From positions 32,192-96,191 of IMG/VR virus record IMGVR_UViG_3300046323_000360: a stretch of 64,000 bases of DNA, one strand, 5' to 3'. The notes under the pieces are model-generated. The model did not search any database and was not told where the DNA came from. It saw only the letters and a program-made list of their open reading frames with translations. This document shows positions 3,701 to 32,338 of this stretch, piece by piece. This stretch comes from a virus. The translations under genes and the position numbers were made by a program. The first letter of the stretch is position 1; every line of letters begins with the position of its first letter.

Positions 3701-4056
3701 TTTGCAACTCCAAAGCCAACTTTCAAGGTAATCATTGCACTACCTAAAGCTGCTATAGACCCAGCGGCCCCTCCAGCAGCTCCAACTATAGCACCTAGAC
3801 CTCCGACTAGGTCAGATACTCCAGCAGCTAAAGTTCCTACAGCTGTCTGAAGTTTGAAACTTGCTTTAGCTAGAGATGTCCATTTATCTTTAGCTGCCTC
3901 AGCCTCTCTTGCAAAGTCAGACTTAAAAGTCTTAGCTATACTTTGACCAGTTTTTTTAATGGTATCTTCGGCACCATCAAAACCACGCCTAATGTCATCT
4001 TTAACACTAGTAGTTATAGCACGAACGACAATATGAGCCTCGCCTACTACAGCCAT
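760..4056 (-). CDS. tape measure protein
   Basis: 1098 aa, Ala/Gly-rich helical repeats, hydrophobic central segment, C-terminal GG..GAGTSRSDSIPAMLSNGEYII motif typical of actinophage TMPs; follows the chaperone pair. Confidence 0.92.
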   Translation of the reverse strand: MAVVGEAHIVVRAITTSVKDDIRRGFDGAEDTIKKTGQSIAKTFKSDFAREAEAAKDKWTSLAKASFKLQTAVGTLAAGVSDLVGGLGAIVGAAGGAAGSIAALGSAMITLKVGFGVAKLALGGIMKAVQAATKANGGYGKSLKQIGFDAEEAALTVDRAALNLEKAREALLRTQDLPGNSVARREAQLAYNEAELALRKAKSAKDANKDASGGGADPYAGLTPSQKKFAQYLASLKPLLDDLKEAAAKGFLPILQDQLERIVASPLPKILQTGFYRIGQAMGLAAANFTDKLLSPKNLANLQDVLDNMARLLPSFGNIAGNVYSSLLTIIKAADPLTRRFVGYLEKQSETFSNFLDTKAASGELEKFFNRSGELAADFGKVFGNSFNFLGDIIKANFGTVGGGQYMLNWLKGATKKWAELSENMGKANLQGYFLGASKNSKAILQSVGSLVSEIGKLADMPEIKKTFDTLALGAPYLGSMLREGAKAGPILADLIVQITKIASIFADSGQINVYFGTLRNVAKFAADALNNETFKSLVNIVTQISGVALAVGTLHKAFSFGFKIIAGVILGPYNMIKGLPGAFTTATTAVGKFGVVLKGAFGVVGIIGAVVAGVIALNDQLEQAKKDSVTSGEKIRNAFLSGKSGVDVMKEALKDTGGNIMYVKREISGMIGDTPIVHLNTYITSMDDLATSGDKMKLVLAALSKENTGFGKSIGGTQDWFDKESDWTKVETAIGNTGSALAQLAGSSIPDASSKFLELTKAYQMTDADARRFLEAMPELKTQLAETARNAGMATDDTTLLNIAMQRGGDYSNIMASGLGGVDTAADNASKKVQWLSDKILGFGKTNLDTRDAVRRFEAAVDSVTESVKTNGKNLDITTAAGRSNQSALDDLARSAVNQATAIYKATGNTDELTKSMDKGRESLVKAAEKMGLTKDKAKTLADTLLGTPKDIQISVDANTGKATEKLESIKKNYGKGSGFWDNIFGWLTGPKKKDGGFVGFANGGYVKRLAPGGYVSGAGTSRSDSIPAMLSNGEYIINARATSENRELLDRINNNQSVKTAPTINMVINPSPGMDERSLAEMVSRRIAFEIRKGTI

Positions 4057-11533: not shown

Positions 11534-14500
11534 TTAGGTAAGGAGTCGGAGTAGCGTGCTCATCTCAGACTGAACTTCACCCTGAGAGTACACATCTGCA
11601 CCCGACATATAGGACTTAAGACTTGCAGTTGCAATGTCCGCATCCTTTTTACCGATCTTGTCTTCGACTCGGGAAATCATGCCTTTGATGAGATCCTTAA
11701 GTCCAGCAGGAAGATCGCTAAACCTTAGTTTGTCTGCGTCTTTTCCAAATGGAAGAGGCAGGTTAGAGATAACAGTTCCAAGTTCCTTGGCTGTAGCTCT
11801 TACATTTTCTAGAGATCTAGGGTTGAGAGCCTTAGAGTCAAGACGATCAATCATTTCTAGAAGCTTTCCGCTAGCCTTAGCTGAGTCCACGTAGTTACCA
11901 GCAAACTCTAGATTCTCTGCTGTCTGAACTTTATTCAGTGCATCCTGAAGACCTGCAACACCTAGATCTTGTCTTAGGCGAGCAAGAACCTTACGGTATT
12001 TACCGCGAGCATCACGAGGCTGAGTTACAGGTGTGTACTTAGTACGACCATTCTTATCATAAGCATCCTGAGCAGTAGTCTTACCAGCTTTGATATCTTC
12101 AGCTAGCTTAATCTCGTCTGCGGTCTGCTTATCTGCCTCAGCCTTAGCGTCTGCAAGTTTCTTTAGTTCTTCCTCAGAAATGGTCCCCTTAGCATCAGCA
12201 GAGTTGGCGAATTCACTGATTGATGCAATAATTGCACGCATCTCGTCTAGTGCAGAAGAAGCTTCCATAGATGAAGCAGACTTCCATTCTTCAGGAACTA
12301 GTACAGCAAGCTTTAGTGCACGAGCACGCTTACGTATGTGAGCGCGAACCTTTGCACGATCTTTAGGGTTAGAACGTCCATATGCCTTAATAGCATTCTT
12401 CAAGTCCTTCTCGTTACGGATTGGGTAAGAGCCATCTGGAAGCGCCGCACCTTCCTCGGCAAGAGCTTTACGCTCTTGCTCGGAGATAGTAGCTAGTTCA
12501 GCAATAGCTGATGCAACTAGAGCACGCTCACGAAGAGACTCTACCTGAGCAGATGCAGCAACAGTCTTTGGCTTCTTCCACTCTTCTGGAATTAAGTCAG
12601 CAACTTTGAGGGCACGAGCACGCTTTACAATGTGCTTACGAGCAGCTTCTTTATCCTTTGCACGTCCATAAGCGTGGATTGCAGCCTTTATATCATCCTT
12701 GGTCTTAATAGGGAAAGAACCATCTGGAAGAGCCCAGCCCTTAGAGGCATACTCTTCACGCTTTGCACGTGGGATGTAGCCAAACTCGGCTTCTGCACGC
12801 TGTAGAGCAGCTTCGGTAATTGCACCGAGTTCACTCATTTTCTGAGCCTTTAGAGATAGAGACATAACTGCTTCGCTCTTAAGAACTGCCATATCGTAGG
12901 CACCAGCTGCAACAAGAGCCATAACCTTACCAGAAGCTACCATTGCACGGGCAATCGGGAATCCTGGAACGTTAACCTGGCAAACTGCAACTAGCTCGAG
13001 TGAGCCACCGATTGGACGCCAGTCACCTGAAGGAGCAGATGCACGAAGTGCACGAATCTGAGCCTCAGTTACGTCTGGGCGTAGCGAGCCTGCTACCCAA
13101 ATACCGTAGTCATCTTCACCAGCGTGAACATCAGCAATTGCAGATGCGGTATCGTCGTAGTGCTTTGCTGCCTGCTCGGCTGAAGCGTGTAGGGAAGCGT
13201 GACCACCAGCAAGAGTCAGCTGACCTACTGGAACATCCTTACCTTCTGCAGTACGAACAACACCAGTGTGGAAGTAAGCGTACTTGCTCTTTGAGCGAGG
13301 TGGGCGGGTTGCACGAGGCATACCAATGTGGTTAACGTGCCAAGCAGCAATGTGACCAAAGATGTATCCATTAGTGTCAATGGTTAGCGGGGTAGCCTTG
13401 GTTAAAGCTGGCTTCTGGAACCACTCGCTAGGAGGAGTTACAGGGATTTCTGACTCTAAAAATCCAGAAGCAGTTAGAGCTTCGGCTGCTACGAACGAGT
13501 CAACAGACTCTTCGTAAATTCCATCTTGCGGAATCAATTCTTCCTCCTGATTAGCCGACTCCCCGTCGATAAAAATAGTGCATTCCTGGAATGCAGGCTT
13601 AGCTACAATTGTAGCAGCCATTACACGGGCATGATTTATGATGAGCTTCTGTTTACTGATTTCATCAGACTTTTCAGATGCTTCTGGTTCATATTCTTTG
13701 GCTTCAAACTGATCTAGGTCAGCAGATACTCCACGAATAAACCCGTTTCGTACTAGACGCTCTGCCTCTCGACCGTAAGGTCCAGTATCAAATACACCAT
13801 AAGCATTTCCGATACCATCTTCAGTACGCTCCATGTGGTCAATTCGACCAACAACTACAGAACCATTGTGACCTTCACCAGTTTTGATCTGCCATAGCAG
13901 AGGAAGTGGTAGATCACGAACTTCAATAGCATCCTTCTTGAACTTACGTCCATCCCCAGATTCCATTGTCTCGGGTATTAGAAGAGGAATTTTGAAACTA
14001 GCTCCATTAGAGTTTCCAGATGCTACTATTCCTAGTACACGCTCGCGTGCAAAATCTGCCTTAGCAGTAAGTGCTGCTGCAGCAATCATTGCAGTATCCA
14101 TCTCTTCTTCAGAGTTAAATAGGGAGAAGTATGCTTTGTTATTGTTTTTCCCCGGGTTAAATTTACTACCAGTGTAGACACCAGTAACTTCTTTATGGCG
14201 CAACTGACAATATCCCTTAGCGCGAACTCCCATGTATTTCGTTAGGTGTCGCACGCAACGAGTCCAATCTCCTGGAGTGCCCCAGCGGATCTTTAGTGCG
14301 CCTTCGCCTCTAGTCCAGTAGTGGCGAAGCTCTTCAGCATTACCCTTGTTACGATCTAAACCACCAGCAGCAATGAGTGCAATGAACTCATCATCCGCGC
14401 ACTGAGAGATTTCTTCCATTGCTTCGATAATCTCAAAGTCTGGCTCCCACTCGTTATCGTAGATATCATCGTGCTCTGCTTGAATATCTTCTACAGGAGT

Positions 14501-16708
14501 AAGTAGATGCTTGTCCTCTATGTAGCCAGGAACTCCAGTATCTTCTGCCCATACTTCTTCCATGATGTATTCATCATTAGAGAAGTTACCGCGGTCGCGC
14601 TTTGCGTGAGTAGCAGTGTAGTAGCCGAGAGCATCCTTGTGGCGAAGCTGGCAATATCCCTTGGCACGTGGGCCCATATATTTGGCTAGGTGCTTAACGC
14701 AACGCTTCCAGTCGCCAGGGGTTCCCCAGCGAATCTTAGCAGCTCCCTCTCCACGTACCCAGTAGCGGCGAAGTTTCTCTGCATTTCCACGGTTACGGTC
14801 TAGACCACCGGCAGCTGTTAAAGCTTCGATAGGGTCTACCTCTAGAAATGAAAGGAATACCTGAGCAAACAGACTTGCAGCGATAGGGGTCTTAATTCCA
14901 TCTACCTGCTTCAGTATGTCGTCAAGAATCTCATTAGTAATCATGACTACAGGAGGTGGAGTGGCAGACTGCATATCTCTAGCAATCTGAGGATCCTCTA
15001 CCCATTTCTTATCTTGTCTCTTGAAAGTTGCAGGAGCAGTGCTGGTAGCACTAGCAGGAATAAGAGCGACCAAATCCATAACTGCAGCAGGGTCTTCAGG
15101 AGATACGATAGCAAAATACTTTGGCGGGACATCAGTAGTTTCTGGGGTCAGAGCAGTATCTGACCCGGCAGCAATAATTGAAAAATTACCTTTAAACTTG
15201 GTAATTCCCCAGCGAGAAGTAGCTTTAGCAGCATCGGCGGCACTACTAGGCTTATAAGACTTACGCATGTCTGAAACATACTTAGTCCAGTCGGTAAGCA
15301 TGGTATGAATTTGCTTAGCATCCATCGGAGGAAGAGTTCCAGGAATATGTGCTTTTGGCTGATTAATTGGAGTGCGAGGTTCTCCAATAATTCCAGAAAG
15401 ATCTATAACGTTTGGCTCATTAGACACCTGAGTAGCATTGGGTCTAGATGCATTGGTATTTCCCTCTGGATAAAGAAATTTACCATCAACATTGACTTCA
15501 TTACCAGAATCTAGTTTTACCTTTACGGTCCCATCTGGATTGGTGCCTACTACAGTACCCTTGCCTTTAGTTTGGTCGTTTCCAACAGCAACTCGATCGT
15601 TACTCTTGATCCACCAGCCTTTAGCATTTCTAGACTGCTTCTGTACGTTCTGAGATCTCTCGTCTGGCGTGTAGCCATCAGACGGAGCAGCATTAGGGTC
15701 GGAACCAGTAGAAGTAGGGTTAGCAAACTCGTTTGCCGATGCCATAAGAACTAGGTCTAGGATATCTATATCTTCAGAGATAATCCCCTGAGCCATAAGC
15801 TCGGCTTCATCAGCATCAATGGTGTCGATGCTTACAGCCGAGTAAGGGTCTGAAGCAAGTCTTCCAGCAATGATTACAGCAGATTCAGGGTCAATGATGA
15901 AATAGTCATAATCTATCTGCTGATCTGAGTCAGCATCAAGAGCAGCATCTAGTGACCAGATATTGGAGTCAATGTCACCTAGGTTGTCCCAGGCATTGTC
16001 ATCCCAAAGGGCAACAGCTCCGTTTATGTCTACCTTATATAGTCGATCAATTCGACCATCGTTAAGTCTAACTCTGGCTACAAACTCTGGACCGTAGGTC
16101 TCATCAAGTTCATATGCCTCATCAAATGCTCTAAGTGCATCTATGTTAGGTCCGCTAGCATCGGCAGTTAGTGCGTTCTCACGCTCTACTATCTTCTTAG
16201 CCCAACGCCATCCAGCATCTCCACCCCAAAGTGCCCAAGCGATACGCCCGTTAGATGGGAAGTTATCTTCTCCAGGCTCCCAGCCTTTACCCTTCTTGTC
16301 AACTTCGTGACGAGGGAAATACTTAGCAACATGTCTAAGCTTTTCAATACCAATCTGCCCGCCTTTAGCAAGAGTGCGAGCAGTATTCATACCTACCGGG
16401 GTTCCGCCGCGGTGGTGCTCCTTGTGCCACTCCAAAGCCTTCTTTGCTTCAGCCTGGACGCCACTAGGAATGGTATACATTCTGCTACCAGAAGCAGAAA
16501 TAGGAGTGAGAGCATTGAATGATTTCTCGACTAGCTCCATAGTAGAGGTAGAGAACTCGATTGCAGCCTGAGACCATGTTCTCTTGCTAGAAAGGTGCTC
16601 TAGGTCACCAGTCTCGACTATTAGGTTGAGATTGATGTCTACAACAATCCCCTGACCGTCTAGCCCAAAAAGGGCAAGGTTGCTGGAGTGTCCAGAGTAT
16701 TCAAACAT
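11534..16708 (-). CDS. capsid maturation protease polyprotein (1724 aa)
   Basis: Protease-like segments (ESGDGRKF..LPLPLLWQ..GHNGSVVVGRID..GVSADLD and GGHA..HYDDT..SGDWR..LELVAV..VNVPGFP), two RYW.RGEGA.KIRWGTPGDW.RCV repeats, two ALPDGS(F/Y)PI repeats; directly upstream of the capsid gene. Confidence 0.82.
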   Translation of the reverse strand: MFEYSGHSSNLALFGLDGQGIVVDINLNLIVETGDLEHLSSKRTWSQAAIEFSTSTMELVEKSFNALTPISASGSRMYTIPSGVQAEAKKALEWHKEHHRGGTPVGMNTARTLAKGGQIGIEKLRHVAKYFPRHEVDKKGKGWEPGEDNFPSNGRIAWALWGGDAGWRWAKKIVERENALTADASGPNIDALRAFDEAYELDETYGPEFVARVRLNDGRIDRLYKVDINGAVALWDDNAWDNLGDIDSNIWSLDAALDADSDQQIDYDYFIIDPESAVIIAGRLASDPYSAVSIDTIDADEAELMAQGIISEDIDILDLVLMASANEFANPTSTGSDPNAAPSDGYTPDERSQNVQKQSRNAKGWWIKSNDRVAVGNDQTKGKGTVVGTNPDGTVKVKLDSGNEVNVDGKFLYPEGNTNASRPNATQVSNEPNVIDLSGIIGEPRTPINQPKAHIPGTLPPMDAKQIHTMLTDWTKYVSDMRKSYKPSSAADAAKATSRWGITKFKGNFSIIAAGSDTALTPETTDVPPKYFAIVSPEDPAAVMDLVALIPASATSTAPATFKRQDKKWVEDPQIARDMQSATPPPVVMITNEILDDILKQVDGIKTPIAASLFAQVFLSFLEVDPIEALTAAGGLDRNRGNAEKLRRYWVRGEGAAKIRWGTPGDWKRCVKHLAKYMGPRAKGYCQLRHKDALGYYTATHAKRDRGNFSNDEYIMEEVWAEDTGVPGYIEDKHLLTPVEDIQAEHDDIYDNEWEPDFEIIEAMEEISQCADDEFIALIAAGGLDRNKGNAEELRHYWTRGEGALKIRWGTPGDWTRCVRHLTKYMGVRAKGYCQLRHKEVTGVYTGSKFNPGKNNNKAYFSLFNSEEEMDTAMIAAAALTAKADFARERVLGIVASGNSNGASFKIPLLIPETMESGDGRKFKKDAIEVRDLPLPLLWQIKTGEGHNGSVVVGRIDHMERTEDGIGNAYGVFDTGPYGREAERLVRNGFIRGVSADLDQFEAKEYEPEASEKSDEISKQKLIINHARVMAATIVAKPAFQECTIFIDGESANQEEELIPQDGIYEESVDSFVAAEALTASGFLESEIPVTPPSEWFQKPALTKATPLTIDTNGYIFGHIAAWHVNHIGMPRATRPPRSKSKYAYFHTGVVRTAEGKDVPVGQLTLAGGHASLHASAEQAAKHYDDTASAIADVHAGEDDYGIWVAGSLRPDVTEAQIRALRASAPSGDWRPIGGSLELVAVCQVNVPGFPIARAMVASGKVMALVAAGAYDMAVLKSEAVMSLSLKAQKMSELGAITEAALQRAEAEFGYIPRAKREEYASKGWALPDGSFPIKTKDDIKAAIHAYGRAKDKEAARKHIVKRARALKVADLIPEEWKKPKTVAASAQVESLRERALVASAIAELATISEQERKALAEEGAALPDGSYPIRNEKDLKNAIKAYGRSNPKDRAKVRAHIRKRARALKLAVLVPEEWKSASSMEASSALDEMRAIIASISEFANSADAKGTISEEELKKLADAKAEADKQTADEIKLAEDIKAGKTTAQDAYDKNGRTKYTPVTQPRDARGKYRKVLARLRQDLGVAGLQDALNKVQTAENLEFAGNYVDSAKASGKLLEMIDRLDSKALNPRSLENVRATAKELGTVISNLPLPFGKDADKLRFSDLPAGLKDLIKGMISRVEDKIGKKDADIATASLKSYMSGADVYSQGEVQSEMSTLLRLLT

Positions 16709-17628: not shown

Positions 17629-20550
17629 TTATAAGATGTCTTTCTTTCTAACTTGAAGAATACCTCTATTTAATACTACAAAATAGCTTACTCCACCGCT
17701 GCCGCCATCTACTTCTATTGCATCGTATCCGGCTAGTGCATAGTAACTAGATGCTTTATTTATAGGTAGATCCGAGACTAACCCTCTAGCTCTGGAAATA
17801 ACATCTGAACTAGCTTCATCCGTGCCTGGATCTAATTCATTAGCGATCAATGATCGCATCATCTGATCTAGGGCATCCCTAAGTACAGATTCATTAGGCA
17901 TATTTGAATCTTTAGAAAACCCTAATCTTCCTCTACCTAGAACTGCGACTTTAGCCTTAGGATCTATTGCCATCTCTAGTATTACGCTTCCGTATCCTCT
18001 AGCTTCTGCAGATGTGCCGGCAGTATAAGTACCATCACCGTACGCAGTGGTAGTCGAGTAGTATGATGGAGTTGATCCAGTTGCAAATGCCCTGTGTAGA
18101 TCTTTCCCGGAATAGTGAGTACCGTCAGTTGTAGCTGCATTTACTCCACGGAATACCGTAGACCATCCTGGAGTAAAATCATCCACTAGCTGAGGCTTAT
18201 TACTACCAAATCCAAGAATTCTTCCGAGCCTTTGAGCTGTTCTAGATCCGAATATAGTGCCTGGTCCATATTTAGTTCTATCCATTTCAGGATAGTTAGC
18301 CGAGTTATTCTCTGCTAGAACTGTGTCTATCAATGACAATGCAGCTTGACCAAAGGCATCCTTGAACTTCTGTCTCCAAGCAGTACTTTTCTTACCCTTA
18401 GCATATCCATAAGACTCTAGTAGATTCTCAAACCAAGCTGCTCCATTTCCGGATGCAACCATCTGAGCAAATAACTCCGCAAAATTCTCTGCAGGGCTAG
18501 CTGCTCCTCTAGTGCTTACATCTGGAACAGGATTATCAGTTGCTGATTTATCACTAGAGGTACTAGCCTTGGCCTGCACCTGATCACCTGTTAGACCGTA
18601 TCTTCCAAGAATATAATCTCTTCTTTTTTGAAGAGTACCCTTTAGAGAACTAGCTACTGTAGGGTCAGTAATTATCGAGTCAACTATTGTAGAGATATCA
18701 GAATCAGCTAGTTTTAGAAGACGCTTAGCACTGTCAGTCTGGTCCTGCTGAGACATCGAGCTAAATAAGCGTACTGCGCCAGAGTTTGTACCGCCGCTAG
18801 TGAATGTACCTAGCTCGGTTACTGAGTCTCCAAAACTACTACCCTTTGCATCTCCCCTAGCTCGGTAGAGTAGTGCTCCTCCAACATCAATTCTAACAGG
18901 GTTTCCATTTGCGTCGGTGACAATATTATTGTTATACGGAGCGTCCCAGTTGCCTAGGAATGCATCTACAGCAAAACCCTCCTGAACTTTCTTCAGGTAG
19001 GCTGCATCATTATTTACCTTGGCATCAAAGTTTTCTTGGACTCCTGCAACATACTCTGCATATGTTGCAGCTCTTCCATTTATATTTGCAGGAAGTATAT
19101 CTGCAGTATCTATACCAAGAAACTTATATAGAGCTGATGCAAGTCTCTCATTTTGACCATGAAGCTCTGTCTTTTGGAATTTTGCATATACTTTAGTTCC
19201 AGTAGTAGGGTCTTGCCATGTTCCACCTGGGTTTGATCCCTGAGCACCTCCAACATTATTCCATGAAGATAGGTCAGTCGGTGTTGACTGGGCAGCCGCT
19301 ATATTATTAGCATCATCACTAGGTCCAGCTGTATTTAGAGTAGAGTCTGCTACAGATGTAGATGAAGATTCTGGTGCAGCATTGTAGAATTTGTGAAGAT
19401 CTGAACCAATCCTCTTTGAATTCTGAGAGCCATAGAGCTTCTCGGATAGTTGATGACCTACCTCGTGAGCTATGAAATGTTTATAAGCCTCTTGCTTATT
19501 GCTAAAGGATGTAGACCAATATCCAGGATGCCCCTTTGCAATTGATATCTGGTCAGATACCTTATCCACATATATGTGAATTGCATCTGCGTTATCGTAG
19601 GTGAATCCAATGGTATTGCCATCTACACCAGAAATTCCAGCAGGTAAGGCGCTACTATTGTCGAGAAGGTGTACTCGTACTTTTTCTTTGTAAAGCCCGC
19701 CTTCTCTTAGAGCGCCAAGAGCAGCAGAGGTGGCAGCAAAGTCTTCATGAGAAGCTTTAGGACTTAGTTTTCCAGTTCCATCTACAGCCATATGAACAAC
19801 AACAATGTTGCCCGTATTTGCATCAGTTACTTCGATGTGAGCCGTTTTTTGGTCTGATACTTTACTCTTAAGGCTATCTATAGTGGTTAGCTGAGCTTTA
19901 TATAAGGCTTCTGGGCGTGATACACCATTATTTGTGAAAGCATCGAATATGTCATTCTTTATGGAATCAGCATGAGCCTTAGCACCCTTAATATCCCATG
20001 ATCCGGAAACTCCAGCATAGAGAGGTCTAAGATCGGGAAGAGCATCTCTGTAGTCTATAATAGCAGCGTCATATGATTGAGATATATTTACTGGGGTAGT
20101 TCCAGTTCTAGCCTTATTACGGAACCTAGCGTTAATCATAGCTACACTCTTAGGATCTAGAAATCCATCTGAAACGTAGTTATGAGGTGTATAAGAATTA
20201 GCTGGATCCAAACTATCTAGCTGGAAATTCATCAAATCAATGATGGCATTCTTATATGCTTCGGTATCGTTATTTTGTCTAGCAAGGCGGGTAGCCTGTA
20301 TTAGTTCACTTAGCTTAGCGCTATCGTGCCCTGCAGGAATATTACTGTATACATTATCTTCTAAATCAGACAAAGATTTCCAAGAAGAATCTAGCTCAAC
20401 TCTAGATGGGGCTGACACAGTAGTTGCACTAGAGCCGTCAGATCCCTTAACCTTGAGCTGACGCAGTCCAGATAAGTCGAACTGTCTTCCAGGTGGCGTG
20501 CTCGGGGCTGGAGACCCTGGGGTAGCCCCAGGACCCGCAGCCCTATTTAT
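17629..20550 (-). CDS. polyvalent effector: zincin metallopeptidase + PI3K/HipA-like kinase + ADP-ribosyltransferase-like domain, probably made as the -1 frameshift extension of 20547..23459
   Basis: HEVGH and ENFAELFA; GSNPGG..YAK..NERLASALY..DAFLGNWD..NI..RIDVGG; FRG..YGDGTY..GYDAI..YFVVLNR. The frame is open from 20550 and no RBS precedes the GTG at 20418. Confidence 0.72.
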   Translation of the reverse strand: MNRAAGPGATPGSPAPSTPPGRQFDLSGLRQLKVKGSDGSSATTVSAPSRVELDSSWKSLSDLEDNVYSNIPAGHDSAKLSELIQATRLARQNNDTEAYKNAIIDLMNFQLDSLDPANSYTPHNYVSDGFLDPKSVAMINARFRNKARTGTTPVNISQSYDAAIIDYRDALPDLRPLYAGVSGSWDIKGAKAHADSIKNDIFDAFTNNGVSRPEALYKAQLTTIDSLKSKVSDQKTAHIEVTDANTGNIVVVHMAVDGTGKLSPKASHEDFAATSAALGALREGGLYKEKVRVHLLDNSSALPAGISGVDGNTIGFTYDNADAIHIYVDKVSDQISIAKGHPGYWSTSFSNKQEAYKHFIAHEVGHQLSEKLYGSQNSKRIGSDLHKFYNAAPESSSTSVADSTLNTAGPSDDANNIAAAQSTPTDLSSWNNVGGAQGSNPGGTWQDPTTGTKVYAKFQKTELHGQNERLASALYKFLGIDTADILPANINGRAATYAEYVAGVQENFDAKVNNDAAYLKKVQEGFAVDAFLGNWDAPYNNNIVTDANGNPVRIDVGGALLYRARGDAKGSSFGDSVTELGTFTSGGTNSGAVRLFSSMSQQDQTDSAKRLLKLADSDISTIVDSIITDPTVASSLKGTLQKRRDYILGRYGLTGDQVQAKASTSSDKSATDNPVPDVSTRGAASPAENFAELFAQMVASGNGAAWFENLLESYGYAKGKKSTAWRQKFKDAFGQAALSLIDTVLAENNSANYPEMDRTKYGPGTIFGSRTAQRLGRILGFGSNKPQLVDDFTPGWSTVFRGVNAATTDGTHYSGKDLHRAFATGSTPSYYSTTTAYGDGTYTAGTSAEARGYGSVILEMAIDPKAKVAVLGRGRLGFSKDSNMPNESVLRDALDQMMRSLIANELDPGTDEASSDVISRARGLVSDLPINKASSYYALAGYDAIEVDGGSGGVSYFVVLNRGILQVRKKDIL

Positions 20551-20556
20551 TTTGGG
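20505..20556 (-). promoter_or_regulatory. programmed -1 ribosomal frameshift signal
   Basis: C CCA AAA heptamer (20550-20556) right before TAA, 6-nt spacer, then GGGCTG-CGGGT-CCTGGGG-CTA-CCCCAGG-GTCTC-CAGCCC hairpin (20505-20543). Confidence 0.82.
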
Positions 20557-23459
20557 CTGCGGTTCTCGCTCTTCTCTACAACTTCAACCTGCTCATTACC
20601 ATTTTCATCGATATAGAAGACAGCTAATCCAGGGGCTCCACCATCAGCAGCAGGCACCTCTTGAGTCTCAACTACGACTCCTAGGTAGTCTCCATTTGAG
20701 CCATAAAAACTATCATTAGGCTGCAACTGGGTAACGTTTCCATCTACAGGAGCTGCTGGAGTAGCATCTGCAGCAGGAGTATTATCCACTGCTGGAGTAG
20801 CATCTGCAGCAGGGGTACCTGTATTTACTACAGGAGTTGCAGTGCTGCTATCACTAGTCTGAGTGCCACTAGAGTTAGCTGGCTTACCATTGCTTCCAAG
20901 GTATGGCTGGCTAGCATTAGGGTTAGCTGCATTAGGGTCAATAGGAGTGGTATCAGATGGCTTCTGCTCAGCAGGGGTTTCACCAGAACGCTTCTGGTTG
21001 AAGACATCTAGTGCTGGACCTAGCAGTGCTTTTCTTAGGGCTAGCTTCTCGTCCAGTTTTGCATTTGCAGTGTAGTTAGTTAGGTCTGGATTCCCGAACT
21101 CTGAGGTTGGACCAGCAGGGAACATATTACGAGTCTGTAGTAGATCTACAGAAGTACCATCAGCAAACTGCACACGAACTGTGTCGTGATACTGACCATT
21201 CTTACCGCTACCAGCATTGAATGCAATAATCTGACCTACAGAGTGGTCTTTCTCATTAGGGAAGTAGACTACCTTATCGCCAAGCTTGGCAACAGTATTT
21301 CCATCTCCATAGACATACGGGGTTCTGTTCACATCGCGAAGATCAACTTTGTTGCTCTTCATATACATGTCTAGAAGGTTTGCATAGGTGTGGAATCCCT
21401 TAGCATTACTCTGACCAGCAAATCTAGATACAATACCCTTACGTAAGGTGTCAGTCAGAAGTTTACGTGAATCAGGGCTATCTGGCATTCTTCCAAGCAG
21501 CTGAGTAATTCGCCACTTCATATCTTCGTAGTTCTTAGACTCTAGAGCATCCCAGAATGGTGATACCTGACCACGAAGTACGTTACCGAACTGGTAGCGT
21601 GGCTCACCGTCTGGACCAATACCAGTCTGCACCATGCTCATGTTAAGCTTACGGTCTGTTCCTTCTAGGAACTTACTAATATTTTCTTCAGGTGTTAGGA
21701 ATGCCCAACCGAACTTGTCGCTTCCCTTGCGGAAATACTTTAGACGTTGATTTAGGTCTTTATTAGGGCCAAAGTAAGTAGAGATTTCACGAGTAATCTT
21801 AGTTCCAGGTCTAGTCTCACCTAGAAGATGACCGCGCATCGTAAGAAGACCATTTCTCTTAGCAAAGATGCCAGCAAATGAGTCCTTATAGTCAGCTAGT
21901 TGGAAGTCCTTAACTTCACCAGTGGCTGCATCAGTAAATTTGTAGTGCTGTACAAACTGGTTTCCGTAAGTCCTAGATAGTCCCATCTCGAAGGCATACT
22001 TCTTACCAGTTACAGGGTCAGTCCACTCACTGCGCTCAAGGATGATCTTGTTGTTATCTCCCTGAACCTTAGCATCAGGGAACTTCTCTAGAATTGCGTT
22101 TACAATCGCATTAGGATCCTGAATAATCTTCTTAGGGTTATTAGGGTCGCGAACTGGTTTACCGTTCTCGTCTAGTAGGGGGGTGTTTAGTTCTAGGTCG
22201 CGGAGAGCATTATCATCTAGACCATTGGTGTTTAGGGCTACATCTCCACCGTCATCAATGCGACCCTTAGCCTTAGCAATCTCTGCTGCACTCTTCTTCT
22301 CTACTGGAGGGATAGTAGGGGCGGCCTTCTTAGGTGCAACAACAGTAGGGGTCTTCTTAGGGCTAGTTGACTTACCAAAGTGAGCCTTAACCTGGTCAAG
22401 AACTGCCTTAGCGTCATCTGAAGAAACATCTTCACCGTTGTCTAGTCTAGAGACTAGATCATCGAAGCTCTGCTTAACAGCAGGGTCAATGTTAGGGTCA
22501 TTTGCAACCTGGTCAGCAAAGTTGTCAATCTGATCAACCTGAACCTTAGTAACTGACTTGGCTGCAGGAGTTGAAGCTGGAGCAGGAGCAGCCTTCTTAG
22601 GAGCAACATTAAAGTTAGTGTTTGATGCAGCAATAGTCTTTGCTGTTGTACCATCTGCCTTAGTGAAGGTGATCTCAGAGCGACCGTTTCCTGCATCTTT
22701 GCTGGTTACATAAGTAACTATGTTGCCATTCTTGTCAACAATCTGGTCACCAGGATTAAGGTCAATAAGCTTCTTTGTCTTGGCTCCGCCATCGCTCGGC
22801 CCCTGCGCTGCATTGATTACTATATCAACGGTAGGAGTTCCACCGTTCATAGCGTCGTTCCATGCATTGGCTATTGCCTGATCATGGGAGTCACCTGGTG
22901 CAGCTGGTGTAGCTGGTGCAGGAGAACCATTAGCATCTGCAGCATCTCTAGCTTTACCTTCTGCAGAGTCTTTGTACTGAGACATCTCTTTACCCTCAGG
23001 GGTAGCAGTCCCGCCATCAGCTAGGTTTAGGTCACCAGGTGTGATGTCAGCAGTCTCTGTAGTTGCAAGATCCTGAGGCACAAGACCTCCAACATCATTA
23101 CCAAACTTATCTGCATTAGGGTCAATACCCTGAGACTTTAGATATTCAGCCGATAGCTGAGCCTTGATGGATTCCAAGCTATCAGAGTTAACGGCATAGA
23201 CGCCATCTTTGAGATTAGGATTACCCTTAATGAGGATACGAGCCTGGTCTGCGCTACCAGTTGAACCAACAACCTTACCAATCGCGCTGAACTCTTCAAC
23301 GGTTCCATCGGCACGGAGCTTCTTGAATAGAGCACGGGCTTCGGCACCCATCTCCATCCAACGCTTCTTGTGGTCACGAGGCTGGTGACGCCAGAAGCCC
23401 TTGTTAGCACCATCGTTAAATCCGATACCCGCTACGATTGGGTCAAGTTCGTTGGACAT
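20547..23459 (-). CDS. large putative virion/internal head protein (970 aa), Pro/Ala-rich linkers
   Basis: Between portal/Dps and protease; N-terminal FWRHQPRDHKKRWMEMG motif; PAADATPA repeats. Confidence 0.65.
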   Translation of the reverse strand: MSNELDPIVAGIGFNDGANKGFWRHQPRDHKKRWMEMGAEARALFKKLRADGTVEEFSAIGKVVGSTGSADQARILIKGNPNLKDGVYAVNSDSLESIKAQLSAEYLKSQGIDPNADKFGNDVGGLVPQDLATTETADITPGDLNLADGGTATPEGKEMSQYKDSAEGKARDAADANGSPAPATPAAPGDSHDQAIANAWNDAMNGGTPTVDIVINAAQGPSDGGAKTKKLIDLNPGDQIVDKNGNIVTYVTSKDAGNGRSEITFTKADGTTAKTIAASNTNFNVAPKKAAPAPASTPAAKSVTKVQVDQIDNFADQVANDPNIDPAVKQSFDDLVSRLDNGEDVSSDDAKAVLDQVKAHFGKSTSPKKTPTVVAPKKAAPTIPPVEKKSAAEIAKAKGRIDDGGDVALNTNGLDDNALRDLELNTPLLDENGKPVRDPNNPKKIIQDPNAIVNAILEKFPDAKVQGDNNKIILERSEWTDPVTGKKYAFEMGLSRTYGNQFVQHYKFTDAATGEVKDFQLADYKDSFAGIFAKRNGLLTMRGHLLGETRPGTKITREISTYFGPNKDLNQRLKYFRKGSDKFGWAFLTPEENISKFLEGTDRKLNMSMVQTGIGPDGEPRYQFGNVLRGQVSPFWDALESKNYEDMKWRITQLLGRMPDSPDSRKLLTDTLRKGIVSRFAGQSNAKGFHTYANLLDMYMKSNKVDLRDVNRTPYVYGDGNTVAKLGDKVVYFPNEKDHSVGQIIAFNAGSGKNGQYHDTVRVQFADGTSVDLLQTRNMFPAGPTSEFGNPDLTNYTANAKLDEKLALRKALLGPALDVFNQKRSGETPAEQKPSDTTPIDPNAANPNASQPYLGSNGKPANSSGTQTSDSSTATPVVNTGTPAADATPAVDNTPAADATPAAPVDGNVTQLQPNDSFYGSNGDYLGVVVETQEVPAADGGAPGLAVFYIDENGNEQVEVVEKSENRSPK

Positions 23460-23593: not shown

Positions 23594-24130
23594 CTACTTA
23601 AGACCTAGCGTAGCCTTTAGCTGCCAGTTCCACTTTTGGTGCATGTCGATGCGCTCTGCAAGGAAATTTGCAATACCCTGCTCATTGATTCCGTTAGCTA
23701 CACTGAATGCGCTCTTTGCACAGCCAATTAGGTGACCATTCAGTTCGAATAATGACTCAATCATTTCCTTGGCGTAGCCGTCTTCAATACGTGCAATATC
23801 CTTGATACAGCTTAGAGCTTCAAAATCTCCTAGGAAATATGGAGCGTCATATCCGAGCTTAACTATGTTTTCTGCTAGAGGGTCAATAGCACCGTCCAGG
23901 TCTCCATAGATCTCTGAGAAGAAAGCGTGCATCTCCTTGAAGTCTGGTCCAGTGACATTCCAGTGGTATCCCTGCGCAATGTGGCTGAGGGCTACAGTGT
24001 CAGCCAGTAGGTGCGCAAGACTTTCTGCAAGCTCAGCTTTAGGGCTAACCTCTGGAACAACTGATTCTTCTGTTTCATACTCCTGAATAGCATCTATATC
24101 AAACTCTGGAGCGTTTACTTCTTCATACAT
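23594..24130 (-). CDS. dps: Dps-family ferritin (DNA protection during starvation)
   Basis: HWNVTGPDFKEMHAFFSEIY...IDPLAE ferroxidase signature and HQKWNWQL C-terminus. Confidence 0.92.
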   Translation of the reverse strand: MYEEVNAPEFDIDAIQEYETEESVVPEVSPKAELAESLAHLLADTVALSHIAQGYHWNVTGPDFKEMHAFFSEIYGDLDGAIDPLAENIVKLGYDAPYFLGDFEALSCIKDIARIEDGYAKEMIESLFELNGHLIGCAKSAFSVANGINEQGIANFLAERIDMHQKWNWQLKATLGLK

Positions 24131-24131
24131 A

Positions 24132-25901
24132 TTATGCCTTTGGTTCTGCTAGAGCAGGGGCTTGCCCTGCGGGTGGGGTTGTGGATTGTCCTTCTGGAGC
24201 AGCAGCTGGCTGACCTTGTAGAGCCTGTGCAAGCTCTGGTGGAATCGGCGCTACTGAGTTCTGTTGCTGAATACTCTTAGTCATGTCCATAATCTCTGGA
24301 GCCACGGCGCTAAGCATTGCTTCTGTTAGGTCCGGGGTAATTGTCCCCTTATTGATAATCAAACGAAGAGCCAGTTCCTGAGGGGTTGGGGCATCTTGGT
24401 CTGAGAATCCGTGAGCACGTCTCCAGGTCTCGTAACTGACTGCAAGCTTGTCAAATCCAGCATCTGCATCAGCAGCGCGGTCATTACGAGTTGCTACAAG
24501 GCTTGGGTCATACCAGATGTGGAGGCGGTTTACGCTCTCCTCTGGGTATCCGAGAGACTTAAGATATGGACGCAGGTATACAACTGTTAGAGCGTCAACA
24601 ATCAAAAGCATTAGAGGCTCGATGTGAGCCTTGTATAGACTCTCGTCAATCTGCATAGCATTTGAGTACTTAACATTGGCAAGTCCAGTAACGATGTCTT
24701 TTGGAACATCAAGACCCTGCATAATGCGCTCAAGAACTCGATCAGCACGAGCAACTAGGTTCTCATCGAATGAACGCTCGAACTTGAACTGCTTAATCTT
24801 GTCACCAAGTTCTGCAGGTCCACGAATAATAAGTGGAACTACGGCGCTTGCTGAGTCTTCATCCTTAATCGGAGTGGTCATTGCATCGATAAGCTGGTCT
24901 TCAAAGTCATCAGCGGCTTCTTCAGTATTGTAGACCTCGTTGTAATTACCCTCTTCATCGTAAGGGTAGTCAGGGTCAGGAGAAGATGCAACGCTTAGAC
25001 CGTCCGGAAGGTAAAGAGCTCCAGCGTTGAGGCGTGAACGTGCAGTGGCACGGAAGGTGCGGTTAAGTAGAAGTAGTTCAGCGCAGAGGTCTAGTAGACC
25101 GCGTAGCGAGCTGTCAGCCTCCTGGCTGTAGCGTGGGTGCGCCTTCCAGACGCGACCAATAAATGCGTCTTTAGGGAGTCGAATTGATCCAATAGATCCA
25201 CTTCCCAGACCGGAAGTTCCAGAAGATACTTCACGGCGAGGAACAATAACATAGTTACCTTTAGAGTCGATCTGAAGTTCATCAGTTGATCTCATGTCCC
25301 AGGTTTCTGGGAGCTGAGAGCCAATACGCTCTGGAATCTGAACTAGGTAGCATTCACCAGTAACCTGCAGGTTTAGTGCAGCATCCTTAAGAAGACCTGG
25401 CTGACCACCGTAAGCACTGCTAAGACGGTTTAGTGCACGCTCTGCAGCAGCTCCTAGGTCTGAATCAATAACTGTTGACTTATCAACTGGAATAGGTGCT
25501 TCAGCTGAACTCTCTACAACAGCAGTGTAAAGACGAATGCGTGAGACAACGCTGGCAACTAGGTTGAAGGCGTATTTGATTTCACCAATTGCGTCGTAGT
25601 ATTCCCACGCCTCTGACTGCCAGCTAGATGCAGCTGACTGACGACGTGCCTTGAAAAGCTGAGCTTCCTGAGGGTCACCAATTTTAATTTGAACTGCAGC
25701 AGCTGTCAGTGGACGTGGTGCGTTAAAAGCTTGAGGTTCTGCATATACGATTCCGAAAGAATCTACAGATACACCAGGAGCAACCTGAGTGCGGTTAGTT
25801 CCAGCAGATGCAGCACTGGCACGGAGTCTACCGTTTCCGTTAGAAACGTTACGGTTGTTGTTACCGTTTCCGTTATTAGAGTTACGTCTAAAGATACCCA
25901 A
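24132..25901 (-). CDS. portal protein
   Basis: WQSEAWEYYDAIGEIKY...SRIRLY and SAVVPLIIRGP motifs of cluster-B-type portals; downstream of TerL. Confidence 0.85.
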   Translation of the reverse strand: MGIFRRNSNNGNGNNNRNVSNGNGRLRASAASAGTNRTQVAPGVSVDSFGIVYAEPQAFNAPRPLTAAAVQIKIGDPQEAQLFKARRQSAASSWQSEAWEYYDAIGEIKYAFNLVASVVSRIRLYTAVVESSAEAPIPVDKSTVIDSDLGAAAERALNRLSSAYGGQPGLLKDAALNLQVTGECYLVQIPERIGSQLPETWDMRSTDELQIDSKGNYVIVPRREVSSGTSGLGSGSIGSIRLPKDAFIGRVWKAHPRYSQEADSSLRGLLDLCAELLLLNRTFRATARSRLNAGALYLPDGLSVASSPDPDYPYDEEGNYNEVYNTEEAADDFEDQLIDAMTTPIKDEDSASAVVPLIIRGPAELGDKIKQFKFERSFDENLVARADRVLERIMQGLDVPKDIVTGLANVKYSNAMQIDESLYKAHIEPLMLLIVDALTVVYLRPYLKSLGYPEESVNRLHIWYDPSLVATRNDRAADADAGFDKLAVSYETWRRAHGFSDQDAPTPQELALRLIINKGTITPDLTEAMLSAVAPEIMDMTKSIQQQNSVAPIPPELAQALQGQPAAAPEGQSTTPPAGQAPALAEPKA

Positions 25902-26235: not shown

Positions 26236-26601
26236 CTACCCCTTTATGGAGGTTACAGTCTTGTATGGATTCCATCCGCGTAGACGTGAACCGCAACCGC
26301 AGTTTTCATCTTTTTTGAAAGCTACCATTTTTCCAGTGTCCGTAATGACTCGGTGGTCATCTGCCTTTGAGACTGGCTGGTAATAGTTCTCTCTTGTGTA
26401 AGTTTCCATGAACGCAATTACTGGACCTTGAGGACTATCGATAGCAATGAAGATATCTGTTTCGGTCATAACAACGCGAGCTGTTTGAACGTAGGTTGCA
26501 CCTTTAGTAGGTGGGTCGGATTTGAGTAGGTCAATAGTCTCTAGTTCTCCGGGAGCAATGATTGCAACGTGTGCAGGGAAAACATCTACAGTGATTCGCA
26601 T
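26236..26601 (-). CDS. hypothetical protein (CGCG motif)
   Basis: Start overlaps the TerL stop; C-terminal NCGCGSRLRGWNP. Confidence 0.65.
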   Translation of the reverse strand: MRITVDVFPAHVAIIAPGELETIDLLKSDPPTKGATYVQTARVVMTETDIFIAIDSPQGPVIAFMETYTRENYYQPVSKADDHRVITDTGKMVAFKKDENCGCGSRLRGWNPYKTVTSIKG

Positions 26602-29048
26602 TATCGTACTCGGAAGATTCCGCCACCGCGGTTTGGATTCTGAATTCCAATCTTGCGGTCTGACATAGACTTGGCTCTTATTTTTCCTCCGCTAAATCCG
26701 GCAGGTGGTTTGATGAGCAGAGCTGTGAGTGCGTGAACAAGTGCATCAACTCGGTCAGGAGATTTTCCTTCTCCTGGAACCCAGCTGATCATCTGAGACT
26801 CTAGATCAGCAATGTGTCCAACATGGTGAACGCGTCCCTGCTCGTAGGCAAGAGTGATAGGTTCTGCACGCAGTGCCTTACCTTGCTTTGAGTGGACTTC
26901 AAGAACCTTAATGGTCGGGTCAATAGTGTTGATTGCATTGCGAACCAGGGCTCCACCCTGGTTAACCTCGGCAACAACCGGGCAGCCCCACTTGCGTGCC
27001 ATCTTTACAACCTGCTCTGCCCAGACAGTCGGGGAGCCTAGAATCGACGCGTCTTCTAGCACCCAGGCGTTTCGCTTATATAAGTCGTGCTCTGCGGTAG
27101 ACGCAACTACAACAATTCCGCATTCGTCACGTGGGTTTTCAGCAACCGAAGGGTCAACGCCGATAACTCGTAGAGGTGTGGAGAATGGGTACATAGACTC
27201 TCGTCCAGCTTCAATCATCTCTTCAGTCCAGAGAGCGCCTTCCATGGCTTCAAGCATTTCTCCGTAGAGCTCCTGGCGAGCTAGAGAGGTTCCTTGGTAG
27301 ACACCAAGCATGGTATCCATATAGGCACCAGATAGGTTACCTGCGTTGTCCATCGTAGAACCGCGAGTAATAACAACTCGGTCTGTGCGGGACTCTTCAA
27401 TAAGTTTGTAGAGAAGCGGAGTACGCTTCGGGGTAGTAGTTACCAGAATCTTTGGGTGAGCTCCAAGACGAGTACCAACACGCAAGTTATCAAATGCGGT
27501 CATACCTGCGGCATCAGGGGTCTGACGCCAGGCTGCAATTTCGTCCCCCCATGCGTGGGTGTTAGATGTAGGAATCATACCTTCACCTGCTAAGTATAGG
27601 TGGCTCTCGGAGTCAACGGTGATACAGCGCATAAGAACTGGAGAGATAGGATCAATTGAAATAATCGAGTGCTCAGTCGCTTGATAAGTCCAAGTATATC
27701 TAGCCTTAGCAACCTTACGTGGATTCCTAGCAAGCGGAATAGTAGAATTTACCTGAACATACCAAGACTGCTTATCATCTTGGACTCCACGTCGGCTACG
27801 AGGTTTTCTCTTATAAATCTTAGGAACCAGACCGAGACTTCTAGCTATCTCAGCGTAGCCGTCGATAAGATTTTTATTAGTGTTATAGAACCTAAATGCC
27901 CCGCTAGGCTCGACTCCGCCATCTGAATCTGTCATACCTTGCAGCAATGCAAGTCTTTCTTCTGGTGTTGATTTTAGGTATAAGTCAGGGATGTGCTTAT
28001 TACCGTAGAGTCCCATCTTGCGCCACGCGCCGATAAGCCCTGGTGCCCAGACATGGTCTTTATTCTTATCCTCGCCAGAAATACCAGCGGCTGCTAATTC
28101 AGAGAATAACCACTCTTTATCTTCAGAACTAGTTGCAATATAGCTAGGGGCCTTGCTTGCACCGTCGCCTAGAATGATTCCAAGAACCCAAGGGTCAATT
28201 GGTAGAGGGACGTCATTTGGTGAATATTGAATAGCCCCTGTTGAAGGAATGTAAAGGCGTCTACCTAGATTTGCTAATAGTTGATTTGTATCTTTAACCT
28301 GGTGATTCTTAGACTCTCTACCGAAAGGCTGCGTGGCCCAAGTGTCGGGAATGTTTCCGCCAAAGTGAGTAGTCACATAACGAAGGTCAGTCTGTGTAAG
28401 GACCTTCCAGCGATGCTTGCCATCAGCATCAATGTGAGTCCCATTTGAAAAGTTAAGTCGGTAGCTATCAACTGCAAGGTCAATCTCATGCACCGCTGTT
28501 ACTGTGCAAGGATTTCCAAGTTCATCAAAAACTTTATCGCCAACCTTTAAATCGCCCATGGTAGTCCAACCCGAGGGGGTAGGGATAGGAGTTGCAATAT
28601 CTAAACGAAACTGCGGACCACGGAGCGAGTCTGGCTCGTCAGCAGTGAATAGGGTGGCAGTATTTCCATTAGGCCAGGTTAGACGTCTCTTAGAGGGCTC
28701 GTATAGAGGTTTCTCTGATGGAGGCGTGACATTCATAATGCCAGATTCACCTTCAACGATAACGTCACGGACGTCTGCAGCAGTACGGGCAACAAGTGCG
28801 AAACGGCGTTGGCCCGTATTGGTGTACTTAGCCTGCTCTCTAACCCATTCCGAGGCTAGACGAGTTTTACCAAAACCACGTCCCGCAAGGACGAGCCAGA
28901 TATTCCAGTCGCCTGCAGGAGCTTGCTGCTCTGGACGCCCCCAGATACTCCAGTCCCAGAGTAGATGTTCTGGATCCATTTCAGAAAGAGCAATAGCCCG
29001 CTCCTCCGGTGAGAGAAGAGCGAGTTGCTCCATAATACTTTTTCCCAT
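26601..29048 (-). CDS. terL: terminase large subunit containing an intein
   Basis: Walker A AGRGFGKT, LRGPQF|THAWGDE Walker B after intein removal, TTTP motif, RNase-H nuclease GVDPS...SPDRVDA. Confidence 0.95.
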   Translation of the reverse strand: MGKSIMEQLALLSPEERAIALSEMDPEHLLWDWSIWGRPEQQAPAGDWNIWLVLAGRGFGKTRLASEWVREQAKYTNTGQRRFALVARTAADVRDVIVEGESGIMNVTPPSEKPLYEPSKRRLTWPNGNTATLFTADEPDSLRGPQFRLDIATPIPTPSGWTTMGDLKVGDKVFDELGNPCTVTAVHEIDLAVDSYRLNFSNGTHIDADGKHRWKVLTQTDLRYVTTHFGGNIPDTWATQPFGRESKNHQVKDTNQLLANLGRRLYIPSTGAIQYSPNDVPLPIDPWVLGIILGDGASKAPSYIATSSEDKEWLFSELAAAGISGEDKNKDHVWAPGLIGAWRKMGLYGNKHIPDLYLKSTPEERLALLQGMTDSDGGVEPSGAFRFYNTNKNLIDGYAEIARSLGLVPKIYKRKPRSRRGVQDDKQSWYVQVNSTIPLARNPRKVAKARYTWTYQATEHSIISIDPISPVLMRCITVDSESHLYLAGEGMIPTSNTHAWGDEIAAWRQTPDAAGMTAFDNLRVGTRLGAHPKILVTTTPKRTPLLYKLIEESRTDRVVITRGSTMDNAGNLSGAYMDTMLGVYQGTSLARQELYGEMLEAMEGALWTEEMIEAGRESMYPFSTPLRVIGVDPSVAENPRDECGIVVVASTAEHDLYKRNAWVLEDASILGSPTVWAEQVVKMARKWGCPVVAEVNQGGALVRNAINTIDPTIKVLEVHSKQGKALRAEPITLAYEQGRVHHVGHIADLESQMISWVPGEGKSPDRVDALVHALTALLIKPPAGFSGGKIRAKSMSDRKIGIQNPNRGGGIFRVR
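27561..28607 (-). mobile_element. class 3 intein with LAGLIDADG homing endonuclease (349 aa)
   Basis: RLDIATPIPTPSGWTTMGDLKVGD N-terminus, block B HRW, block F MRCITVD, block G IPTSN|T; endonuclease motifs LGIILGDG and LQGMTDSDG. Confidence 0.9.
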
Positions 29049-32178: not shown

Positions 32179-32338
32179 TGCGGTAGACCTTATTGACGGT
32201 CAAGACACTAGTGTCGGGGTTATAGGTTGCGTCAATCAAGTAGTCGGTATTGTTCTCCAACTTATGTAGTCGGTTCTTGACTGACTTGCGCCCAGCAATG
32301 AACGCGCAGACCATAGCAACGGCAATGAAAAGTTCCAT
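32171..32338 (-). CDS. small membrane-anchored protein (paralog of 36473..36640)
   Basis: TATGGT-N6-ATG leaderless start at 32338; GRKSVKN..ENNT..VLTV resembles GRLSVGN..ENAT..VLTI. Confidence 0.6.
   Translation of the reverse strand: MELFIAVAMVCAFIAGRKSVKNRLHKLENNTDYLIDATYNPDTSVLTVNKVYRNE

Follow-up and report, generated by a model that had tools for sequence, protein, structure and literature searches.

Predicted programmed -1 frameshifting between a portal-adjacent phage gene and a module of polyvalent-type enzymes

How does a phage translate an open reading frame (ORF) that codes for roughly a thousand residues of enzymes and shows no start codon where its conserved sequence begins? The question is raised by a 64,000-nucleotide stretch of viral DNA, positions 32,192 to 96,191 of the 96-kb IMG/VR virus record IMGVR_UViG_3300046323_000360, which we call the window. 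On its minus strand the 3´ end of a long gene close to the portal gene, here gene A, meets a second long reading, here B, that lies in the -1 frame. A previous reading of the letters alone (the sequence-only reading) had suggested that ribosomes slip from A into B. Comparison with relatives makes it highly probable, in our opinion, that a programmed -1 ribosomal frameshift produces two proteins from the single start codon of A.

The slip site and its conservation

The junction in the window consists of the following elements.

20547-23459, minus strand: gene A, the zero frame, 970 amino acids (aa) (P0001), with an ATG start, a GAGGA Shine-Dalgarno sequence and the end ...NRSPK-TAA
20556-20550, minus strand: slippery heptamer C_CCA_AAA (of the form X_XXY_YYZ), in phase with gene A
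20549-20547, minus strand: zero-frame stop TAA, immediately 3´ of the heptamer
17629-20550, minus strand: B reading in the -1 frame, 973 codons from ATA 20550-20548 (P0002), with its stop at 17629-17631
20505-20543, minus strand: predicted stimulatory hairpin behind a 6-nt spacer, TAAATA, with basal stem GGGCUG/CAGCCC and inner stem CCUGGGG/CCCCAGG

The 3´ end of gene A reads AGC CCA AAA TAA. After a slip of one base backwards the next codon is ATA (20550-20548), and B then reads INRAAGPGATPGSP...TTVSAPSR, free of stops down to 17629. Both coordinate arithmetic and three-frame translation place B in the -1 frame relative to A. The A-B fusion amounts to 970 + 973 = 1943 aa, and its predicted junction peptide is ...ENRSPK-INRAAGPGATPGSPAPSTPPGR. 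The -1 frame becomes open just 9 codons 5´ of CCC, and the first ATG, GTG or TTG in it is GTG 20418, codon 45 past the slip. What the sequence-only reading had said about the letters themselves (the end of the ORF, the open -1 frame, the hairpin and a 9-bp stem treated in the last section) is correct in every point, on the minus strand. An in-phase X_XXY_YYZ heptamer within so short an overlap of the two frames is expected by chance in a few percent of cases. The argument that we regard as decisive against chance is conservation in relatives.

In seven homologues of A, 53-67% identical to it, the last residues are without exception ...R[S/N/G]PK. Homologues of A overall, at 26-67% identity, have in common the N-terminal motif GFNDGANKGFWRxQPR and the C-terminal end ...R[GS]PK. 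The same junction is found in four further loci (L002, L005, L007/L160 and L106), whose B readings are 33-47% identical to that of the window. Across these five loci it reads AAC/GAC CGC [A/G]GC CCA AAA TAA AT[A/C] GGGCTG, and the -1 frame of the four relatives is open for 978-1002 codons. Invariant residues are written with the same codon in all five loci in 6 of 8 cases at the junction and in 43 of 331 elsewhere (49/339 overall; Fisher p = 1.5e-4).

The 19-mer of the junction gave 37 matches in metagenomes, among which L106 is the sole true relative and the others are chance palindromes. Viral and metagenome contigs, when first scanned with either A by itself or alignment A1, yielded at most one locus, and neither megablast of the region nor tblastn of A and P0016 produced a match among 50,697 phage records.

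The heptamer does not stand alone. In the window the downstream hairpin has a folding free energy (dG) of about -32 kcal/mol and a z of about -3 against shuffled sequences; in the five close loci it begins exactly 6 nt past the heptamer, with dG of -23 to -32 and z of -3 to -4. All five have the basal stem GGGCUG(A)/(U)CAGCCC in common. It is constant across 7 related loci, and the inner helices vary in sequence and length. The hairpin did not lend itself to a column-wise covariation score, as these inner helices are unequal in length and cannot be aligned.

In IMG/VR, 43 loci emerged from a profile scan. Counting lineages by distinct junction sequences, we recognize 16 of the frameshift type: the window, L002, L005, L106, L160, L124, L145, L125, L129, L134, L135, L140, L141, L143, L146 and L148. 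All 16 carry in-phase CCCAAAA (AAAAAAA in L140 and L148) with a zero-frame stop 0-1 codons later, and in most of them a hairpin follows 5-7 nt 3´ of the heptamer. Their -1 ORFs span 386-1638 aa, the first canonical start being as deep as codon 126. Broader homologues of A with the motif GFNDGANKGFWRxQPR mostly end with ...PK, ...PKA, ...PKL or ...PKKA.

Some relatives are continuous. The proteins P0010 and P0024 and the loci L130, L147, L136 and L154 continue in one frame beyond ...R[GA]PK, first through a linker and then through a zincin module. The four in-frame loci write Pro-Lys as CCT AAG or CCT AAA, by which the heptamer is destroyed; it is present in 16/16 frameshift lineages versus 0/4 in-frame fused ones (p = 2e-4). 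We consider the in-frame forms to be natural controls. Read in this manner, they show that the covalent link of carrier and cargo would be the functional state, and that CCCAAAA is apparently kept only where a change of frame is required.

Ways of reaching the second frame

In the proposed mechanism, most ribosomes on gene A would stop at TAA 20549-20547 and release the free 970-aa protein. A fraction of them, with tRNA-Pro on CCA and tRNA-Lys on AAA, would slip back by one base on C_CCA_AAA. The slip would be promoted by the stable hairpin located at the mRNA entrance, 6 nt 3´, and possibly helped by the adjacent stop codon. Shifted ribosomes would then read a flexible linker of ~50 residues followed by the remainder of B, giving the ~1943-aa A-B fusion. 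The core of this, a -1 shift at C_CCA_AAA with the downstream hairpin as stimulator and the ~1943-aa fusion beside free A as its outcome, is what the sequence-only reading had claimed. It had also named related phages as the place to look for confirmation; the junction is indeed kept across the 16 lineages, and the comparative data strongly support the claim. Four other explanations of the frame change can be imagined, and the comparative pattern appears to contradict each of them.

Firstly, A and B might be separate genes, B starting at GTG 20418, TTG 20373 or some ATG further on, in which case the open frame before the start would be due to chance. GTG 20418 is indeed present, and gene callers annotate the homologues of B as stand-alone ORFs, 826-970 aa long. 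The starts chosen by these programs are scattered, however, and so are the codons available to them: the first ATG, GTG or TTG after the slip is codon 45 in the window, 107 in L002 (which thus lacks a canonical start for 106 codons), 56 in L005, 79 in L106 and 26 in L160. A Shine-Dalgarno sequence is absent at both GTG 20418 and TTG 20373; neighbouring genes have one of GAGG- or AGGA-type. Moreover, the -1 peptide is kept from the first post-slip codon, as INRA, then a variable stretch rich in Pro, Ser and Thr, then [GT]RxF[DN]xxxLR. The last motif is kept, 5´ of any start codon, in the five loci and in P0028, P0053 and P0059. The codons of this peptide change synonymously, with AGA, CGA or CGT for Arg and CTG, CTA or CTT for Leu. 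Such changes show selection on the protein in a stretch that lies 5´ of every canonical start. Separate genes would further leave the conserved heptamer, spacer and hairpin unexplained, and in-frame fused relatives exist. The comparison indicates that B has no independent conserved start and would be reached by the shift or by weak internal starts only. Two separate genes thus seem to us very improbable.

Secondly, the frame might change at the level of RNA, through transcriptional slippage of the polymerase on the run of A residues. The 7-A run of L140 and L148 is of a length known to slip. Yet 14 lineages have only AAAA, which is, to our knowledge, too short for productive transcriptional slippage. 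What is conserved is the X_XXY_YYZ phase together with the hairpin at 5-7 nt, and this is a ribosomal signature. Among the alternatives, slippage of the polymerase is the sole one that could add a minor contribution, in the two 7-A lineages only; as the explanation of the window's junction it deserves no more credit than separate genes.

A third possibility, slightly fainter again, is termination at TAA, after which translation would restart in the -1 frame from a non-canonical codon, for instance AUA 20550, so that free B and no fusion would be made. AUA shares bases with the stop (AAAUAAAUA), and conservation of the INRA peptide sets in there. But AUA is a very poor bacterial start codon, and the strong hairpin 3 nt past it would hinder initiation. 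Lineages in which the stop comes one codon later (PKA-stop) are without this overlap and still keep the heptamer, and the in-frame relatives make a covalent fusion. Finally, homopolymer runs are error-prone, but an assembly or sequencing indel that splits a single 1943-aa gene is hardly worth considering, because 16 lineages, taken from unrelated samples, break the frame at the identical point, and truly continuous relatives use different, non-slippery codons there.

Returning to the programmed frameshift, sequence and comparison demonstrate the site and its conservation, the lack of any start of B's own, and the folds of its domains described below. Several points weigh against it or against its wider interpretation. 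The trans-frame protein is a prediction from sequence. No A-B fusion longer than 1699 aa was found in the protein database, which is weak evidence. Many of the 16 lineages come from metagenome assemblies, and the number of independent ones is our own count from junction sequences. A, for which no family or fold match was obtained, is only a putative virion protein, and the assignment of the C-terminal domain of B to the ADP-ribosyltransferases (ARTs) is weak. One protein, P0057 (1959 aa), came into consideration as a fusion by its length and was discarded, being dissimilar to A.

For the tail chaperone and small capsid decorations of tailed phages, programmed frameshifting is textbook knowledge. 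Known -1 extensions comprise the major head and tail proteins of Lactobacillus phage A2, the capsid protein of T3 and the tail chaperone G/GT (PMC5009743); the shifts in virion genes of A2, which the sequence-only reading had named as a precedent, are confirmed through this review. The likeness to our case is twofold. The -1 shift occurs near the end of a gene of the late structural module, and a fixed minority of the product is extended at its C terminus, with the short form alongside (PMC5009743). Further, a heptamer is combined with a downstream stem-loop; for A2 the sequence-only reading had given this heptamer as CCCAAAA, and no pertinent mention of CCCAAAA as a slippery sequence in phages came from searches of text. 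The differences concern the extension and the gene. Extensions in A2, T3 and G/GT are small (an Ig-like decoration, the T part of the chaperone), whereas a 973-aa module, probably of three enzymes, would be appended here. The shifted gene is neither the capsid protein (9436-11409) nor a chaperone, and the extension varies by lineage. The same device would here extend a conserved protein by ~1000 residues of enzymes, and would do so in many lineages, whose cargos differ.

The enzymes of B and their presumed carrier

The features assigned to B are listed here in the order of translation.

20404-20550, minus strand: disordered linker, B residues 1-49, rich in Pro, Ser, Gly and Ala, predicted local distance difference test (pLDDT) ~29
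20461-20490, minus strand: motif GRQFDLSGLR, inside the linker
18400-20055, minus strand: zincin-like metallopeptidase, B residues ~165-717, split by an insert, with HEVGH at 19453-19467 and ENFAE at 18475-18489
18556-19293, minus strand: atypical protein-kinase-like domain, B residues ~420-665, inserted in the zincin, from a fold match
17632-18213, minus strand: C-terminal domain, B residues ~780-973, probably an ART, from weak matches

Searches of B by sequence against PDB sequences, NCBIfam and Pfam gave nothing, and its domains emerged by fold comparison alone. The AlphaFold model of B has a mean pLDDT of 73, and residues 1-49 are disordered, as expected of a linker. With the kinase skipped, the zincin fold is matched (VIA) by anthrax lethal factor (Z 9.8), PPEP-3 (Z 8.8) and lugdulysin (Z 8.1). 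H362, E363 and H366 of the HExxH motif are invariant among the homologues of B, and ENFAE is nearly so. The kinase-like domain matches CtkA (Foldseek E 2e-5; VIA Z 15.2), PI4KII-alpha (Z 12.7), CotH (Z 12.6) and HipA (Z 11.7), and its invariant residues include GSNxGG, a Lys, a Glu, NWD...N and IDxGG. It has 3630 homologues, mostly within proteins of 1000-7000 aa. P0059 (689 aa) has the zincin and the C-terminal domains and no kinase; the kinase is therefore a discrete insertion between HExxH and the ENFAE segment.

The C-terminal domain is harder to place. Atlas features point to PF18760 ART-PolyVal with a score of 0.93, and the PARP catalytic domain is found at E 5e-4 in 2/16 homologues; no solved-structure match was obtained for this domain, and no Pfam hit for B itself. 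Judged by the models, B is a polyvalent-type protein, in which a lethal-factor-like zincin with an inserted atypical kinase precedes a probable ART. The sequence-only reading had seen in B a multi-enzyme, effector-like protein; fold matches supply the zincin and the kinase for such a description, and its ART part has gained weak support.

The linker deserves a separate remark. A short F/I-D-L/F motif, often in an acidic setting (FDLSGLR, NFDLSKLR, DFDFDD, DFDLD, IDLS), occurs 20-60 residues past the junction in the window, L124, L129, L134, L135, L140, L141, L146, L148 and P0024, that is, in nearly all cargo classes, in-frame fused relatives included. It may be a docking or cleavage signal. 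The zincin possibly cleaves the fusion at or near the conserved linker motif FDLSGLR.

Other lineages carry other enzymes behind the same site. The -1 ORF of L134 (12308-17221) contains an ADPrib_exo_Tox exoenzyme (2e-43) and an RNase T-type exonuclease, and the latter is also found in the -1 ORFs of L125 (11438-12355) and L143 (12221-15508). Peptidase_Mx1 and a lethal-factor-like peptidase (ATLF) are present in those of L140 (10618-11775) and L148 (11084-13234). L143 and L146 have a common junction sequence and cargos of 1096 and 508 aa, which suggests exchange of cargo downstream of the slip site. Across the family, the slip site is the junction of a conserved carrier and an apparently swappable cargo.

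Gene A is surrounded by genes of virion morphogenesis.

26601-29048, minus strand: large terminase, interrupted by a LAGLIDADG-type intein or homing endonuclease (PF14528, residues ~360-424)
24132-25901, minus strand: portal
23594-24130, minus strand: ferritin/Dps-like gene (PF00210, 1e-16), a part of the head module that follows the portal gene and precedes A
11534-16708, minus strand: 1724-aa protein with PHROG matches annotated as portal protein and head maturation protease (residues ~910-1310)
9436-11409, minus strand: major head protein
760-4056, minus strand: tape measure protein

The order on the minus strand is large terminase, portal, ferritin/Dps-like gene, A, B, two small ORFs, the 1724-aa protein, major head protein, head-tail adaptor and tape measure. 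Portal proteins of Actinomycetia phage DSL-LC01 and Microbacterium phage Pumpernickel are 70% and 65% identical, respectively, to the one encoded here; the phage is therefore an actinobacterial siphovirus. In both relatives the slot between portal and capsid is occupied by a giant protein in a single frame, 3289 aa in DSL-LC01 (L167, OQ999401.1 52800-62669) and 2235 aa in Pumpernickel (L168, NC_073468.1 33383-40090). The giant protein of DSL-LC01 contains the same kinase-like domain (42% identity).

A itself gave no Pfam (even at E <= 10), PHROG, NCBIfam or fold match. Its BFVD and Atlas fold matches were set aside as meaningless, with a model pLDDT of 51 and template modelling scores (TM) of ~0.05-0.16. 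Its place beside the portal gene, the type of its cargo and the occupants of the same slot in relatives point indirectly to A as a putative head protein. We suggest that it might act as a multi-copy carrier inside the virion, and that the shift would set the ratio of carrier to cargo. The cargo would be packaged and enter the host with the DNA, as has been proposed for polyvalent proteins. The toxicity of this payload, assumed in the sequence-only reading, is conjecture.

For the polyvalent proteins of phages and conjugative elements, packaging and delivery together with DNA have been predicted (Iyer et al. 2017, PMC5512222). B resembles them in combining unrelated effector-type domains in one polypeptide, namely a zincin-like metallopeptidase and protein-modifying domains (a kinase and, probably, an ART). 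The polyvalent proteins described are single polypeptides in one frame, and frameshifting is unmentioned (PMC5512222), whereas the enzyme block here would be joined by recoding alone. Another likeness is to the MuF polymorphic toxins (Jamet et al. 2017, PMC5576092), in which a conserved head-associated N-terminal module is likewise followed by variable C-terminal enzyme or toxin domains, in a portal-adjacent position. Unlike these, A is without a MuF domain (PF04233; no Pfam family at E <= 10), the coupling is by frameshift, and the portal and head maturation protease matches lie in the separate 1724-aa protein. The nearest published hint is among the unconfirmed predictions of PRFect, which include pairs of MuF-like and VIP2 ART genes (PMC10885494). 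We found no published description of a conserved frameshift that joins a carrier family to polyvalent enzyme cargo.

A wider model would be modular: a portal-adjacent carrier, interchangeable enzymes and one -1 site between them, with recoding, as opposed to gene fusion, setting the number of armed copies per virion and, in some lineages, an alternative helix tuning the shift. We are evenly divided over this model as a whole. If true, it would reveal the means by which phages dose the large effector proteins that they deliver. It would also explain the start-less look of cargo ORFs in metagenome annotation, where N termini would be miscalled (826-970 aa for the 973-aa reading). Further, it would provide a rule for finding and joining such genes, with a carrier C terminus ...RxPK followed by CCCAAAA, stop and hairpin. 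Frameshifted and in-frame relatives would together make a ready system for asking what control of stoichiometry buys the phage.

Two minor observations belong to the neighbourhood of A. The 1724-aa protein is a second giant protein of the head module, 3´ of B, with long flanks that bear little or no annotation. A loading tag (QPRD) common to the N terminus of A and the 1724-aa protein was considered and dropped, the BLASTP similarity being not significant (E 0.49).

A helix enclosing the slip site

One more structure in the window involves the slip site.

20535-20562, minus strand: alternative 9-bp helix, CCGCAGCCC (20562-20554) with GGGCUGCGG (20543-20535), enclosing heptamer and stop

The sequence-only reading had proposed that this helix and the downstream hairpin are mutually exclusive, so that the stimulator would form only once a ribosome melts the enclosing stem. 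The stem CCGCAGCCC/GGGCTGCGG is perfect, and GGGCTG is common to it and to the downstream hairpin. The helix and the basal stem of the stimulator compete and are formally exclusive. The enclosing stem belongs to the minimum-energy fold of the naked RNA, with dG of -20.5 versus -6.6 +/- 2.3 for shuffles. A ribosome on the heptamer necessarily holds the upstream arm inside, so the helix is already melted by then. Local refolding of the hairpin would probably be fast relative to the several codons that remain to be translated.

The helix is clearly above shuffled controls in the window, L005, L106 and L125 and, less strongly, in L002, moderate in L141, L145 and L135, and at background level in L124, L129, L134, L140, L143, L146 and L148. 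Within the clade of the window we found no compensatory pairs in it, only one change from A-U to G-U and unpaired substitutions. Its nucleotides are also constrained by the Arg-Gly/Ser-Pro codons, the heptamer and the basal stem of the stimulator. A regulatory role as a switch is speculative, because the enclosing stem is kept in some lineages only, and we consider it rather doubtful. Of the earlier proposal, the perfect stem and the common GGGCTG hold, and the switch lacks compensatory changes in the clade.

Attenuator hairpins upstream of -1 frameshift sites are known, for example, in coronaviruses. The likeness is that the shift could be reduced or timed by a helix in which sequence preceding the slip site takes part. 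In contrast to them, the upstream strand here pairs with the 5´ arm of the stimulator itself, and conservation is patchy.

A comparable layout was seen in L135 (9700-9760), where a 9-bp helix with 2 G-U pairs is formed by UGGCUCGGA, in the coding sequence upstream, and UCCGAGUCG, the 5´ arm of the downstream hairpin belonging to this lineage. L135 repeats the arrangement of competing helices using unrelated sequence.

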